NCBI RefSeq assembly: GCF_030013595.1
Contig: NZ_CP122768.1
Direction: 5' to 3' (one strand)
Length of the DNA stretch: 64,000 nucleotides
DNA from: Escherichia coli
GTDB taxonomy: Bacteria; Pseudomonadota; Gammaproteobacteria; Enterobacterales; Enterobacteriaceae
Both the position numbers and the translations under genes were made by a program. A model generated the notes under the pieces. The model saw only the letters and a list, made by a program, of their open reading frames with translations. It made no database searches and had not been told where the DNA came from. Shown one piece after another: positions 2,808 through 11,758 of the stretch (positions are counted from its first letter, which is position 1; each line of letters starts with the position of its first letter).

Positions 2808-6209
<3,402 letters not shown>

Positions 6210-6275: not shown

Positions 6276-6875
6276 ATGCGTAAACTTTATGCCGCCATTT
6301 TGTCCGCAGCCATTTGTCTGGCCGTATCCGGTGCGCCTGCATGGGCGTCTGAGCAGCAGGCCACGCTGAGCGTGGGGTATCTTCATGCCCGGACGAACGT
6401 TCCCGGCAGTGATGATCTGAACGGGATTAACGTGAAATACCGTTATGAGTTTACGGACACACTGGGGATGGTGACGTCATTCAGCTATGCAGGAGACAAG
6501 AATCGCCAGCTGACCCATTACAGCGATACCCGCTGGCATGAAGATTCCGTTCGTAACCGCTGGTTCAGCGTAATGGCGGGGCCGTCTGTGCGCGTGAATG
6601 AATGGTTCAGCGCGTATGCGATGGCGGGTGTGGCTTACAGCCGTGTGTCGACTTTCTCCGGGGATTATCTCCGCGTAACTGACAACAAGGGGAAAACGCA
6701 CGACGTGCTGACCGGAAGTGATGACGGTCGCCACAGCAACACGTCTCTGGCGTGGGGAGCTGGCGTGCAGTTTAACCCGACCGAATCCGTGGCCATTGAT
6801 ATTGCTTATGAAGGCTCCGGCAGTGGCGACTGGCGCACTGACGGTTTCATCGTGGGTGTCGGTTATAAGTTCTGA
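6276..6875 (+). CDS. lom: Outer membrane protein Lom (Ail/Lom/PagC family beta-barrel), prophage moron
   Basis: 199 aa with signal peptide (MRKLYAAILSAAICLAVSGAPAWA) and C-terminal ...GFIVGVGYKF; matches lambda Lom as recalled; flanked by terminators. Confidence 0.85.
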   Translation: MRKLYAAILSAAICLAVSGAPAWASEQQATLSVGYLHARTNVPGSDDLNGINVKYRYEFTDTLGMVTSFSYAGDKNRQLTHYSDTRWHEDSVRNRWFSVMAGPSVRVNEWFSAYAMAGVAYSRVSTFSGDYLRVTDNKGKTHDVLTGSDDGRHSNTSLAWGAGVQFNPTESVAIDIAYEGSGSGDWRTDGFIVGVGYKF

Positions 6876-6901
6876 TTAGCCAGGTAACACAGTGTTATGA
6901 C

Positions 6902-6929
6902 AGCCCGCCGGTTCAGGCGGGCTTTTTTG
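6902..6929 (+). terminator. Intrinsic terminator downstream of lom (AGCCCGCC-GGTTCA-GGCGGGCT + T6)
   Basis: 8-bp perfect stem followed by TTTTTTGT. Confidence 0.55.
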
Positions 6930-6939
6930 TGGGGTGAAT

Positions 6940-9900
6940 ATGGCAGTAAAGATTTCAGGTGTACTGAAAGACGGCACAGGAAAACCGGTACAGAACTGCA
7001 CAATCCAGCTGAAAGCAAAACGTAACAGCACCACGGTGGTGGTGAACACGCTGGCCTCAGAAAATCCGGATGAAGCCGGGCGTTACAGCATGGACGTTGA
7101 GTACGGTCAGTACAGCGTTATTCTGTTGGTGGAAGGATTCCCGCCGTCACATGCCGGGACCATCACCGTGTATGAAGATTCCCGACCCGGTACGCTGAAT
7201 GATTTTCTCGGTGCCATGACGGAGGATGATGCCCGTCCGGAGGCACTGCGCCGTTTTGAACTGATGGTGGAAGAGGTGGCGCGTAACGCGTCCGCGGTGG
7301 CACAGAACACGGCAGCCGCGAAGAAGTCAGCCAGCGATGCCGGCACATCAGCCCGTGAGGCGGCAACCCATGCGACTGATGCTGCAGGCTCAGCACGCGC
7401 AGCCAGCACGTCAGCCGGACAGGCCGCGTCGTCGGCTCAGTCAGCGTCTTCCAGCGCAGGAACGGCATCAACAAAGGCCACTGAAGCGGAAAAAAGTGCT
7501 GCCGCTGCAGAGTCCTCAAAAAGCGCGGCGGCCACCAGTGCCGGTGCGGCGAAAACGTCAGAAACGAATGCCGCAGCGTCACAACAATCAGCAGCCACTT
7601 CTGCATCCACCGCGACTACGAAAGCGTCAGAAGCTGCCACCTCAGCCCGGGATGCGGCGGCCTCAAAAGAGGCAGCGAAATCATCAGAAACGAACGCATC
7701 CTCGAGCGCCAGTAGCGCAGCTTCCTCGGCAACGGCGGCAGGAAATTCCGCGAAGGCGGCAAAAACGTCAGAGACGAACGCCAGGTCTTCTGAAACGGCA
7801 GCGGGACAGAGCGCCTCGGCTGCGGCAGGCTCAAAAACAGCGGCTGCATCATCTGCCAGTGCAGCGTCAACAAGTGCCGGGCAGGCCTCAGCCAGTGCCA
7901 CCGCCGCCGGAAAATCGGCAGAAAGCGCCGCATCGTCTGCTTCAACAGCCACAACGAAGGCTGGCGAAGCCACTGAACAGGCCAGCGCAGCAGCGAGGTC
8001 TGCTTCCGCAGCGAAGACATCCGAAACGAACGCGAAAGCGTCGGAAACCAGCGCAGAATCCTCAAAAACGGCAGCCGCATCGTCCGCCAGTTCGGCAGTG
8101 TCATCGGCATCATCTGCGTCTGCTTCAAAAGATGAGGCGACCAGACAGGCGTCAGCAGCGAAGGGCAGCGCCACGACGGCATCCACGAAGGCGACAGAGG
8201 CAGCTGGCAGTGCGAGGGCAGCAGCTCAGAGCAAAAGTACGGCGGAATCTGCAGCAACGCGCGCTGAGACAGCGGCAAAACGGGCAGAGGATATTGCATC
8301 CGCCGTGGCGCTTGAGGATGCGAGCACGACGAAAAAGGGGATAGTACAGCTCAGCAGTGCGACCAACAGTACGTCTGAAACGCTGGCGGCAACGCCAAAG
8401 GCAGTAAAATCAGCCTATGACAATGCAGAGAAACGTCTGCAGAAAGACCAGAACGGCGCTGATATACCCGATAAGGGACGCTTCCTGAACAACATTAACG
8501 CGGTCAGTAAAACAGACTTTGCTGATAAGCGTGGTATGCGTTATGTGCGGGTTAACGCTCCTGCAGGTGCAACATCTGGAAAATATTACCCTGTTGTTGT
8601 TATGCGTTCTGCTGGCTCAGTAAGCGAACTGGCATCAAGGGTCATTATCACCACGGCAACGCGAACCGCAGGCGATCCGATGAATAACTGCGAGTTTAAC
8701 GGGTTTGTTATGCCTGGTGGCTGGACTGACAGGGGGCGTTATGCTTATGGAATGTTCTGGCAATATCAAAACAATGAACGAGCCATCCACTCAATAATGA
8801 TGAGTAATAAGGGCGATGATTTGCGCTCTGTGTTCTATGTTGATGGTGCTGCTTTCCCTGTTTTTGCGTTTATTGAAGATGGCCTGTCAATATCCGCACC
8901 TGGTGCTGATCTCGTTGTTAATGATACGACCTATAAGTTTGGGGCAACAAATCCAGCGACGGAATGTATCGCGGCGGACGTTATCCTTGATTTTAAGAGT
9001 GGCCGTGGTTTTTATGAGTCCCATTCGTTAATCGTTAACGATAACTTGTCGTGCAAAAAACTTTTTGCCACAGACGAAATTGTAGCGCGTGGTGGTAATC
9101 AGATTCGAATGATAGGTGGGGAGTATGGTGCATTATGGCGTAATGATGGCGCTAAAACTTACCTGCTGCTTACCAATCAAGGTGATGTTTATGGTGGCTG
9201 GAATACATTAAGACCGTTTGCTATTGATAACGCAACCGGCGAACTGGTTATTGGAACCAAACTGTCCGCAAGTCTGAACGGTAATGCATTAACAGCAACA
9301 AAGCTGCAAACGCCAAGACTGGTTTCTGGGGTTGAGTTTGATGGTTCCAGAGATATTACTTTAACCGCTGCGCATGTTGCTGCTTTTGCCAGAAGAGCAA
9401 CGGATACGTATGCCGATGCGGATGGGGGCGTTCCCTGGAATGCCGAATCAGGCGCTTACAATGTCACCCGCTCTGGCAACAGCTATATTCTGGTTAACTT
9501 CTATACCGGAGTCGGAAGTTGCCGGACATTGCAGATGAAGGCGCATTACAGAAATGGAGGTCTGTTCTACCGTTCCTCAAGAGATGGCTATGGTTTTGAG
9601 GAAGACTGGGCAGAAGTTTATACCTCGAAAAATCTTCCACCAGAAAGCTACCCAGTCGGCGCACCAATCCCGTGGCCATCAGATACCGTTCCGTCTGGTT
9701 ATGCCCTGATGCAGGGGCAGACTTTTGACAAATCTGCTTACCCGAAACTTGCAGCCGCTTATCCGTCAGGCGTGATCCCTGATATGCGTGGCTGGACGAT
9801 TAAGGGCAAACCTGCCAGTGGTCGGGCCGTATTGTCTCAGGAACAGGACGGCATTAAATCGCACACCCACAGCGCCAGCGTATCCAGTACGGATTTGGGG

Positions 9901-10293
9901 ACGAAAACCACATCGTCGTTTGATTACGGCACTAAATCCACGAATAACACCGGGGCGCATACGCACAGTGTGAGCGGTACAGCCGCAAGTGCCGGAAACC
10001 ATACTCATAGTGTCACAGGCGCATCAGCAGTCAGCCAGTGGTCACAAAATGGGTCAGTACATAAGGTAGTGTCTGCGGCCAGTGTGAATACAAGTGCTGC
10101 AGGAGCACACACTCATAGTGTCAGCGGCACAGCTGCATCTGCAGGTGCTCACGCACATACTGTCGGTATTGGTGCTCATACGCACTCTGTTGCGATTGGC
10201 TCACATGGACACACTATCACCGTTAACGCTGCTGGTAACGCGGAAAACACCGTCAAAAACATCGCATTTAACTACATTGTGAGGCTTGCATAA
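6940..10293 (+). CDS. stf: Side tail fibre protein (Stf family), ~1117 aa
   Basis: N-terminus [24 protein letters not shown] and C-terminus ...[31 protein letters not shown] match lambda Stf as recalled; ATG at 6940 rather than ORF-track GTG at 6934; contains A/S/T-rich repeat block and HxH repeats. Confidence 0.85.
7261..8341 (+). repeat. Degenerate tandem coding repeat (Ala/Ser/Thr-rich, recurring AAKTSETNA / SAAxSASxATTKAxEA units) inside stf
   Basis: Motif KTSETNA or KSSETNA recurs at least four times in the translated ORF; low-complexity A/S/T composition over ~360 aa. Confidence 0.6.
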
Positions 10294-10877
10294 TGGCATT
10301 CAGAATGAGTGAACAACCACGGACCATAAAAATTTATAATCTGCTGGCCGGAACTAATGAATTTATTGGTGAAGGTGATGCATATATTCCGCCTCATACA
10401 GGTCTGCCAGCAAACAGTACCGATATTGCACCGCCAGATATTCCGGCTGACTTTGTGGCTGTTTTCAACAGTGATGAGGCATCGTGGCATCTCGTTGAAG
10501 ACCATCGGGGTAAAACAGTTTATGACGTGGCATCAGGGGACGCGTTATTTATTTCTGAACTCGGTCCGTTACCGGAAAATGTTACCTGGTTATCGCCGGA
10601 AGGGGAATATCAGAAGTGGAACGGCACAGCCTGGGTGAAAGATGCAGAAGCAGAAAAACTATTCCGGATCCGGGAAGCGGAAGAAACAAAAAACAGCTTG
10701 ATGCAGGTAGCCAGTGAGCATATAGCGCCGCTTCAGGATGCTGTAGATCTGGAGATCGCAACGGAGGAAGAAAACTCGTTGCTGGAAGCCTGGAAGAAGT
10801 ATCGGGTGTTGCTGAACCGTGTTGATACATCAACTGCACCTGATATTGAGTGGCCGGAAGAACCAGACACAATGTAA
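10293..10877 (+). CDS. tfa: Tail fibre assembly protein Tfa
   Basis: 194 aa; [44 protein letters not shown]... matches lambda Tfa as recalled; start overlaps stf stop. Confidence 0.9.
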
Positions 10878-11034
10878 GCGAAAAAGAAAAACCGCAGACA
10901 CGACGTATGCAGGACGTGCTGCGGTTGGCTGGTGAACTTTCGATAGTGCGAGTATTGAATGATTTCCAGCCGTTATTGATTTTATATAACTGTAGTGGAG
11001 TTATTCAACACACAGGCAAAACGGAATAATCTGA

Positions 11035-11073
11035 GAAAAAAGCGTGCTTCGCCAATCAGGGGGGCGAAGCACG
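11035..11073 (-). terminator. Terminator-like hairpin (CGTGCTTCGCC...GGCGAAGCACG) with T-tract on the minus strand, in the tfa-ssrA junction
   Basis: 11-bp inverted repeat preceded on + strand by A6 (T6 on minus strand after the stem). Confidence 0.4.
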
Positions 11074-11243
11074 TCTGAATGACACCTGAAAATTTCCCGT
11101 CCGTTAAGTGTCCGCCCCGAGAGAAGTGGGGAACCATAACACCCTGTCGGGACGCAGAAAGAAACAACACAACTTGCAGGGATATTTCTCGATACTGCGT
11201 CAATGGTGGGGGATGTTAAATTATTACACTTAGTTACAAATAG

Positions 11244-11277
11244 AAAAGCCTCTGACTTCATAAGCAGAGGCTTTTCT
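11244..11277. terminator. Bidirectional terminator-like hairpin (AAAAGCCTCTG-loop-CAGAGGCTTTT) in the tfa-ssrA junction
   Basis: 11-bp inverted repeat flanked by A-run upstream and T-run downstream. Confidence 0.4.
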
Positions 11278-11395
11278 TAAATGCGCGTGCATTTTGCGTG
11301 TATATTTTTGTCTTTTTCTGGTCCGCTCACTGTCTGGTCAGTGTCCATAAGTGACTGTTTTTATAGTCTCTGTCTGGTTGTGGTCCTGTCAAAAG

Positions 11396-11758
11396 TGGTG
11401 GAGCTGGCGGGAGTTGAACCCGCGTCCGAAATTCCTACGTCCTCGGTACTACATGCTTAGTCAGTCTTTACATTCGCTTGCCAGCTGCGGACGGACACGC
11501 CACTAACAAACTAGCCTGATTAAGTTTTAACGCTTCAACCCCAGGCAGGGCTTCCACGCGATCTCTTTTGGGTTTGACCTCTCTTGATCCCCGTCCTAAG
11601 AGCGGAGGCTAGGGAGAGAGGGCTCTAAGCAGGTTATTAAGCTGCTAAAGCGTAGTTTTCGTCGTTTGCGACTATTTTTTGCGGCTTTTTACGAGGCCAA
11701 CCGCCCCTCGGCATGCACCTTGGGTTTCGCAAATCCCGTCGAATCCAGAATCAGCCCC
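11396..11758 (-). ncRNA. ssrA: tmRNA (SsrA, transfer-messenger RNA), 363 nt
   Basis: Reverse complement reads GGGGCTGATTCTGGATTCGACGGGATTTGCGAAACCCAAGGTGCATGCC...GGTTCAACTCCCGCCAGCTCCACCA, i.e. full-length E. coli tmRNA including encoded CCA. Confidence 0.95.

Follow-up and report, generated by a model that had tools for sequence, protein, structure and literature searches.

Ur-lambda carries four side tail fibres (Stf) per virion, each a trimer, which accelerate adsorption, features known for Ur-lambda only; cryo-EM and ET resolve them into an N-domain collar, a coil, a hinge and a distal part, with twelve copies of the N-domain forming the collar at the gpV/gpM junction, the coil spanning residues 102-393, and the proximal part of that coil visible in lambda as a bundle of three chains (PMC12617516). 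Related coils, termed PCoil regions, are trimeric and α-helical (PMC3368898). In the tip of the T4 fibre protein gp37, seven irons are bound, and the iron-binding pair H929/H931 is essential (PMC6957217).

The fibre gene described here lies in a window of 64,000 nucleotides of Escherichia coli DNA (contig NZ_CP122768.1), and its product is, very probably, the side tail fibre of a lambdoid prophage next to ssrA, of the same allelic type as StfR of Rac. It is a close allele of this well-known protein, whose parts have already been described in close relatives; by its N-domain, its gene position and its full-length similarity it belongs to the lambda Stf/StfR family. The features of the gene and its neighbours, all on the + strand, are as follows:

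2811-6209, +: J, central tail fibre gene, upstream of stf (Pfam J domains)
6276-6875, +: lom, between J and stf (Pfam Ail_Lom)
6940-10293, +: stf (stfR-type), side tail fibre gene, 1117 codons plus stop
6940-7221, +: N-terminal tail-attachment domain (PfN / phage_tail_N), residues 1-94 (PF08400, E 1.6e-71)
7222-7251, +: putative short linker, residues 95-104, placed by homology to lambda Stf linker residues 92-101
7252-8322, +: proximal rod, residues 105-461, 51 uninterrupted heptads x-A-x-x-S-A-x, predicted trimeric α-helical coiled coil of ~53 nm
8323-8445, +: Phage_fiber_2 repeat, residues 462-502 (PF03406, E 1.6e-22), conserved junction to varied distal modules
8446-9642, +: distal shaft without lambda Stf counterpart, residues 503-901, with Mu gpS-like and T4 gp34-like segments
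8926-9267, +: T4 gp34 C-terminal-like segment, residues 663-776 (PF21446 Gp34_trimer, E 3.3e-27)
9364-9660, +: Mu gpS-like segment, residues 809-907 (PDB sequence match to 8JU3/5YVQ)
9643-9861, +: Collar domain, residues 902-974 (PF07484, E 7e-12), aligning to the T4 gp37 collar in 2XGF
9862-10212, +: HxH 'needle', residues 975-1091, with seven His-x-His motifs aligned with T4 gp37; seven metal ions per trimer predicted
10009-10107, +: tip head domain, residues 1024-1056, between HxH 3 and 4, likely receptor-binding surface and hypervariable cassette
10293-10877, +: tfa, tail fibre assembly chaperone, 194 residues (PF02413 Caudo_TAP, E 3.7e-45)

The stf reading frame starts with the ATG at 6940 and stops at 10291-10293, giving a product of 1117 residues, and the best E. 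coli match in RefSeq is annotated with the same 3354-nt span; over its full length the gene is 98.4% identical in nucleotide sequence to stfR of E. coli 2014C-3061. Pfam recognizes phage_tail_N, Collar, Phage_fiber and Phage_fiber_2 in the protein (the last was absent from the whole-protein scan and was found when residues 451-540 were scanned alone), and an NCBIfam scan of it returned no match. These domains and the tfa gene downstream bear out an earlier note, made from the DNA letters alone, that had called the product an Stf side tail fibre and had proposed an HMM search for fibre domains, which detected both Phage_fiber_2 and the collar at the E-values listed. The order J-lom-stf-tfa is that of lambda; the ATG of tfa overlaps the stop codon of stf (TAATG; read in the sequence), and 3' of tfa come 520 bp and then ssrA, which the prophage adjoins. 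The window holds just the tail end of this prophage. A nearly identical prophage occupies the same ssrA site in ETEC1732.

It is improbable that stf is an inert remnant in a defective prophage, like stfR in K-12 Rac, and yields no fibre; its closest named homologue does sit in the defective Rac prophage, and the window covers only the tail end of the element, but L, K, I, J, lom, stf and tfa form a contiguous run of intact tail genes, the 3.35-kb stf frame is free of frameshifts, unlike that of laboratory lambda, and full-length matches with 95.6-97.8% nucleotide identity occur in deposited phage genomes (for example 2H10, Kati, ev099, mEp332, and PhiR34_1). Of 5426 complete E. coli genomes, 1230 carry a gene covering at least 80% of stf.

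The N-domain aligns over 94 residues with the lambda Stf N-domain chain in PDB 9E7M/9MGH (E 2e-51); by homology to Ur-lambda Stf, it would dock on the tail at the junction of tube and tip. After the linker, the three chains of the presumed homotrimer would enter a thin, Ala/Ser-cored coiled coil of 51 heptads and ~53 nm. Ala accounts for 36% of the stretch in question (residues 105-461), Ser for 23% and Thr for 12%, where the remainder of the protein has 12%, 9% and 9%; together the three make up 70% of the stretch, and just 10 of its 357 residues are large and hydrophobic. Its heptads are strict: position 2 is Ala in 47 of 51, position 5 Ser in 37 and position 6 Ala in 35, without proline and without a register shift from the first heptad to the last. 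The autocorrelation of residue identity peaks at every seventh lag through 56 (z = 8-11) and is near zero or negative at all other lags, and 7-mers recur 18 times, compared with a mean of 2.4 and a maximum of 13 in 2000 column-preserving shuffles. KTSETNA occurs in exactly three copies (residues 205, 275, and 359) and KSSETNA in one (residue 247), all spaced by multiples of 7, where four or more copies of KTSETNA had been counted earlier. AF2, run on the single sequence, predicts one continuous helix over residues 98-469 (pLDDT 75). The stretch, with Ala/Ser heptads directly after PfN, a predicted helix and length steps of seven among its relatives, is thus best read as a 'PCoil' coiled-coil rod, probably trimeric as in its homologues, and not as plain low complexity; the earlier note was right about Ala/Ser/Thr-rich repetition beyond chance, which it placed at residues ~110-470, and missed the 51-heptad rod. 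A collagen-like G-X-Y run of at least four triplets, the mark of an EPcl protein, is absent from this Stf; such runs do occur in other representatives of the family. Nor does a higher-order, multi-heptad repeat stand out from a column-shuffle null: the best identity between 35-residue blocks, 0.69, only reaches its 95th percentile, with 11 heptads as the sole offset to attain a z of 3.2. Since block identity does not exceed this null, no recent block duplications are claimed.

In relatives, the coil falls into length classes of 145, 257, 264, 320, 341, 355, and 369 residues, which differ by whole heptads; classes of 152 and 166, and further cases of 264 and 320, were counted after anchors placed 17 residues early had been corrected. 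A non-integral heptad difference is seen in 4 of 38 sampled coils of other length (161, 339, 340, and 364 residues). Independent deletions of 14, 28, 49, 105, and 112 residues are found at different positions of the coil. The length of 51 heptads recurs in K-12 StfR, in ETEC1732 and in 84 of 111 sampled relatives, a sample chosen by similarity to this Stf. The comparison of relatives thus does yield length variants, mostly differing by whole heptads, as the earlier note had anticipated; the proposed cause, recombination between nucleotide repeats, is not supported, as the DNA of the heptads is alike only as far as the amino acids force it to be. The coil DNA does have a 21-nt periodicity, with an identity of 0.43 for in-phase offsets, 0.36 for the remaining codon offsets and 0.23 for offsets that break the frame; the in-phase values, 0.42-0.46, are those expected when synonymous codons are shuffled under an unchanged protein (z -1.2 to +1.6), and the highest-scoring 60-nt window, at 67%, lies under the mean of such shuffles, 69%. 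TRF finds no array in 6900-10400 at a minimum score of 30, and the longest exact direct repeat in the coil DNA is 12 nt. The nucleotide repeat of the coil is therefore very weak, and no stronger than its codons require.

It is accordingly very unlikely that the coil is a nucleotide tandem repeat acting as a 'contingency' locus, in which fast recombination or slippage would produce frequent length variants. Close relatives do include length variants, the top nucleotide-identity offsets are all multiples of 21, and some deletion end-points fall at recurring motifs, the 112-residue deletion lying between KSSETNA at residue 247 and KTSETNA at residue 359 (23 of 27 nt match between 7672-7698 and 8008-8034). 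DNA copies alike enough for slippage or homologous recombination, by which such a locus would be recognized, are however not found in the coil: to the absence of TRF arrays, the limit of 12 nt on exact repeats, and the agreement of the in-phase identity with its synonymous-shuffle null, with the best window below the mean of that null, come the lack of any block repeat beyond the column-shuffle null and the constancy of the 51-heptad length in K-12 StfR, ETEC1732 and most of the similarity-chosen relatives. Rod length in whole heptads may instead be a selected, tunable 'reach', carrying the tip beyond the central J fibre and fitted to the thickness of O-antigen or capsule, a possibility that we rate as low; the sequences show only that there are discrete, heptad-integral length classes, spanning about 20 to 51 heptads or roughly 20-53 nm in the sample, and that the 51-heptad class is combined with at least eight distal modules. 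If it holds, the low nucleotide identity among the heptads would point to length classes that are old and stable, and not to a fast-switching repeat.

The weakest alternative, a disordered low-complexity spacer or glycosylated mucin-like linker in place of a folded rod, might be invited by the extreme composition of the stretch and by a genome survey that marks StfR as a low-complexity outlier (PMC12695832), but is hardly credible given 51 repeats in one unbroken register, free of proline and with positions 2, 5, and 6 held by small residues, the single helix predicted by AF2, homologous PfN-PCoil fragments that are α-helical trimers by CD and SEC-MALLS (PMC3368898), the proximal trimeric bundle of lambda (PMC12617516), and length variants that keep to the heptad, for which a disordered spacer has no need.

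The coiled-coil rod would be linked by the Phage_fiber_2 junction to a β-rich distal shaft of Mu gpS-like and T4 gp34-like modules. In relatives with the same 51-heptad coil, at least eight different sequences follow the 'AVK' at this junction. The shaft has a GC content of 0.465, against 0.60-0.62 for the coil, and the same module is found in fibres of 650-720 residues that lack the lambda N-domain. Matches to PDB sequences cover residues 706-776 (4UXE/5NXF) and residues 436-521 and 809-907 (8JU3/5YVQ), and residues about 522-705 are without a solved relative. As an AF2 monomer model of residues 462-905, computed with 14 aligned sequences, was too poor to use (mean pLDDT 34), the fold proposed for the shaft rests on these partial sequence matches only.

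At its end the fibre would carry a collar of gp37 type and a needle of six strands that metal ions hold together. The last 216 residues (902-1117) match the T4 gp37 tip in PDB 2XGF (E 5.6e-88), with all seven HxH motifs, at residues 975, 1007, 1021, 1057, 1071, 1080, and 1089, aligned to their T4 partners (883/885, 915/917, 929/931, 966/968, 980/982, 989/991, and 998/1000); PF03335 matches six stretches of the needle. H1021/H1023 correspond to the T4 pair H929/H931. By this homology, the motifs would be the metal-binding motifs of a gp37-type tip, as the earlier note had surmised, with seven metal ions each bound by HxH from the three chains in an octahedral, six-His coordination (two per chain). 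The collar, the HxH motifs in register and a dedicated tip chaperone gene downstream are all present, as expected of such a tip, and Tfa, the product of that gene, would fold it.

The head domain, inserted between HxH 3 and HxH 4, aligns to T4 gp37 residues about 932-965, the site of the OmpC/LPS host-range residues, and would contact the host surface receptor, OmpC/LPS-like in lambda and T4. Of 46 differences from K-12 StfR, 24 fall within residues 1021-1056, and the head domain lies in the sole stretch of stf-tfa (nt 9975-10143) for which the same-site prophage of ETEC1732 gives no alignment; the sharpest difference from both is a swap of the head domain between these two HxH motifs. The head-domain allele is found in 751 of the 5426 genomes. 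In T-even phages, recombination takes place at such motifs, known as 'His boxes'. PMC9659904 makes no mention of HxH, iron or StfR. The family diversifies in three ways: (a) the rod gains or loses whole heptads, (b) one distal module takes the place of another at the Phage_fiber_2 junction, and (c) the head-domain cassette, flanked by conserved HxH repeats, is swapped.

This stf is a common allele of an E. coli prophage gene that already has a name, and each of its parts has been described in print, structurally or biochemically, for a close relative; as a discovery it carries little weight. For annotation, its "low-complexity" stretch should read as a 51-heptad coiled-coil rod; for engineering, the junction (residues 462-490) and the HxH-flanked head domain (residues 1024-1056) would offer natural swap points setting host range. 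Because the head domain differs, neither K-12 StfR nor the ETEC1732 prophage should be taken as a guide to the receptor specificity of this allele.

Among the described systems, the collagen-like EPclA/B of EHEC prophages share with this Stf the Ala/Ser-rich heptads directly after PfN, but continue into collagen Gly-X-Y triple helices, and their region of predicted coiled coil (about residues 101-245) is shorter than the 357 residues of the rod described here (PMC3368898). Mu gpS (5YVQ, 8JU3) and the C-terminal region of T4 gp34 (4UXE, 5NXF) match in segments only, which stand in a different order and context. T4 is a virulent myovirus. The tip of its gp37 (2XGF) has the same collar, seven HxH motifs in register and an identical C-terminus, and T4 gp38, like Tfa, is a dedicated chaperone encoded downstream of its fibre; the receptor of this Stf cannot be inferred from T4, whose head domain between HxH 3 and 4 has another sequence, and the remainder of gp37 is unrelated.

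Ur-lambda Stf (774 residues, rebuilt by adding one C that laboratory lambda lacks) has in common with this Stf the N-domain, the linker, the Ala/Ser heptad rod, the Phage_fiber_2 junction, the collar, the HxH needle, and the C-terminal 60 residues, the two proteins aligning at residues 1-303, 409-490, and 903-1117. Residues 491-902 (nt 8410-9645) are without lambda counterpart, which agrees with the mosaic of lambda-like ends and a foreign middle that the earlier note had seen. Its estimate of an excess of ~345 residues over lambda Stf is close to the 343 found; the foreign middle is however not the sole source, as the coil adds 105 residues (15 heptads, an indel placed from the protein alignment), the middle 269, and the tip -31. 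The rod of 51 heptads, compared with 36 in lambda, would be roughly 15 nm longer; the lambda hinge and distal part (residues 386-528) are replaced by the 412-residue shaft resembling Mu gpS and T4 gp34, and the lambda tip is 31 residues longer, with extra HxH and FDYGTK repeats.

Closest of all is StfR of K-12 Rac (P76072; WP_071842875, 1120 residues). Rac lies at another chromosomal site and has pinR after tfaR, where here tfa is followed by the 520 bp leading to ssrA, and its StfR carries a different head-domain cassette (residues 1021-1056); the two proteins nonetheless agree in architecture over their whole length, are 95.9% identical over 1117/1120 residues and share the 51 heptads, the distal shaft and the seven HxH motifs, followed in both by tfa.

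The repeat in the proximal part of the side tail fibre Stf (1117 residues), which the earlier note described as a degenerate, low-complexity tract rich in Ala, Ser and Thr, is real in composition (Ala 36%, Ser 23% and Thr 12% of residues 105-461), but the description overlooked a strict heptad rod: these residues form 51 unbroken heptads x-A-x-x-S-A-x, with Ala at position 2 in 47 of 51, Ser at position 5 in 37 and Ala at position 6 in 35, and contain neither a proline nor, by Viterbi scan, a register shift. Residue autocorrelation reaches z = 8-11 at each multiple of 7 up to lag 56, and lies at or below expectation at other lags. Exact motifs recur more often than chance allows: 18 7-mers are repeated, whereas 2000 column-preserving shuffles gave 2.4 on average and never more than 13. 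KTSETNA stands at residues 205, 275 and 359 and KSSETNA at 247, all at spacings that are multiples of 7; no higher-order collinear block repeat in the region is significant. Modelled alone in AF2, residues 95-470 are predicted as a single unbroken helix (98-469, pLDDT 75). An α-helix rises 0.148 nm per residue; at that rate the 51 heptads would span about 53 nm and the 36 of lambda about 37 nm.

At the nucleotide level, the internal repetition expected in a dot-plot is present only as a 21-nt periodicity: positions a multiple of 21 nt apart have a mean identity of 0.43, against 0.36 for other whole-codon offsets and 0.23 for the remaining ones, and a control region lacks the period. The amino-acid repeat fully accounts for this period. 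TRF reports nothing, the longest exact direct repeat in the coil DNA is 12 nt, and the best 60-nt window reaches an identity of 0.67, against a mean of 0.69 in synonymous-codon shuffles; in-phase identity likewise matches the shuffles (z -1.2 to +1.6), so the repeat belongs to the protein rather than to the DNA. Long stop-free ORFs of 147-335 aa cross the heptad region in other frames and on the opposite strand (7337-8344, plus strand; 7437-8186, 7616-8299 and 7163-7606, minus strand) and look like by-products of its GCN/TCN/ACN codon repeat; lambda carries an annotated antisense 'orf206b' at the equivalent place.

Length variants, which the earlier note suggested the nucleotide repeat could permit through recombination, do exist and respect the heptad, but that mechanism is not supported, as the DNA offers only microhomology. 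In 111 relatives having both anchors, a sample biased to sequences resembling the query, the distance from the end of the N-terminal phage_tail_N domain to the KKGIVQL motif falls into classes of 145, 257, 264, 320, 341, 355 and 369 residues, with more proteins at 152, 166, 264 and 320 once anchors matching 17 residues early are corrected; all these differ by whole heptads, and only four proteins (161, 339, 340 and 364) depart from the rule. Alignments show independent rod deletions of 14, 28, 49, 105 (two distinct ones) and 112 residues at separate positions, the last spanning between KSSETNA and KTSETNA units. Some family representatives (P0184, P0215, P0216, P0218, P0231 and others) join the same N-terminal domain to only 2-3 heptads and then to collagen-like Gly-X-Y repeats of the EPcl type, so that a different triple-helical spacer can take the place of nearly the whole rod.

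Relatives vary in rod length, in distal module and in tip cassette; the same 51-heptad rod and conserved ATPKAVK junction are followed by at least eight different sequences. Relative to the reconstructed 774-residue Ur-lambda Stf, the excess is 343 residues, and it does not all come from the foreign middle, to which the earlier note attributed the whole of it: the rod gains 105 residues (exactly 15 heptads), the hinge and distal part of lambda (143 residues) give way to a 412-residue shaft (491-902, +269), and the tip loses 31. The shaft has a GC content of 0.465, against 0.60-0.62 in the rod, and also occurs in fibres of 650-720 residues lacking the lambda N-domain, as would be expected of a shuffled module. 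The sharp composition step within stf (7500-8500 against 8500-9500; rod GC 0.57-0.62 and AT skew +0.41, shaft GC about 0.465 and AT skew about 0) fits a mosaic origin.

Pfam places phage_tail_N at residues 1-134, Gp34_trimer at 663-762, Collar at 907-954 and also Phage_fiber; Phage_fiber_2 (462-502, E 1.6e-22) appears on scanning that segment alone. The AF2 model of the distal shaft is unusable (pLDDT 34), and a PDB sequence search finds no solved relative for residues 522-705.

Matches of Stf to solved structures in the PDB
1-94, lambda Stf N-domain (9E7M/9MGH), E 2e-51
436-521 and 809-907, Mu tail fibre gpS (5YVQ, 8JU3)
706-776, T4 gp34 C-terminal region (4UXE, 5NXF)
902-1117, T4 gp37 tip crystal structure (2XGF), E 5.6e-88

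These domains and the 2XGF match bear out the earlier note's identification of an Stf with a gp37-like tip predicted to bind metal. Each of the seven His-x-His motifs (residues 975-1091) lines up in register with one of the seven in gp37, and H1021/H1023 align with T4 H929/H931, an essential pair that binds one of the seven iron atoms along the axis (PMC6957217); metal binding by the tip is thus well supported by homology. Differences from the K-12 homologue StfR concentrate at residues 1021-1056 (24 of 46). The 1137-residue Stf of pig strain ETEC1732, whose prophage occupies the same ssrA site, is 94% identical, and its sole unalignable stretch (window nt 9975-10143) lies between motifs 3 and 4 and aligns with the T4 head domain, which bears the OmpC/LPS host-range residues. 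According to Tétart and Krisch, such 'His boxes' reportedly flank tip exchanges in T-even adhesins. The tip allele of the window is itself common (751 of 5426 genomes).

The window covers the tail end of a prophage of lambdoid type; the flanking chromosome is E. coli and 100% identical to pig isolates.

Genes at the prophage end
tail genes of L, K and I size (by size), in the prophage part of the window
2811-6209, J
6276-6875, lom
6940-10293, stf, ATG to stop, 1117 aa
10293-10877, tfa, its ATG overlapping the stf stop as TAATG
11396-11758, minus strand, ssrA (tmRNA), 3' end about 520 bp beyond tfa
after ssrA, smpB

At 10878-11758, the tail-fibre end adjoins the ssrA 3' end through a 520-bp spacer without annotated gene, 100% identical in four pig E. 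coli strains (three named ETEC and rl0044); no pin invertase follows tfa here, in contrast to Rac (pinR) and strain 2014C-3061. Between lom and stf, a terminator-like GC-rich hairpin and T-run (6902-6933) ends about 10 nt 5' of the stf ATG and its Shine-Dalgarno-like GGGGTGA; starting from the GTG at 6934 would add two codons, but homologues begin at 6940. The receptor-binding C-terminus of the central fibre J (5831-6125, residues ~1007-1105) is unalignable with the ETEC1732 prophage, otherwise 95-96% identical, and the last 200 residues share only 53% identity with lambda J. Hence J may use a receptor other than LamB, and the tips of both fibres are swapped in this phage.

The best match (98.4% nt) has the identical 3354-nt span annotated in RefSeq as stfR, 'prophage tail fiber N-terminal domain-containing protein', and full-length genes at 95.6-97.8% nt identity occur in deposited phage genomes. 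Very many database homologues (P0094, P0096, P0303, P0316 and others) are 'partial', probably through assemblies breaking inside the multi-copy stf gene; several are misnamed, for example as 'short-chain fatty acid transporter', 'PPE-repeat protein' or 'terminase large subunit'. For the fibre itself, we infer the oligomeric state, the metal content, the receptor and the expression.

In EHEC prophage fibres, the region after phage_tail_N equivalent to the rod has been termed 'PCoil', with a loose heptad, lengths varying in multiples of seven and StfR among its homologues (Ghosh et al. 2012, PMC3368898). A 2025 structure divides Ur-lambda Stf into a collar domain (1-91), of which twelve copies ring the gpV/gpM junction, a linker (92-101), a proximal coiled coil (102-393) and, beyond, hinge, distal part and receptor-binding domain (PMC12617516). 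Stf here is an allele of a named gene, both ordinary and widespread, and its heptad rule, coil and His-x-His needle have each been published already.
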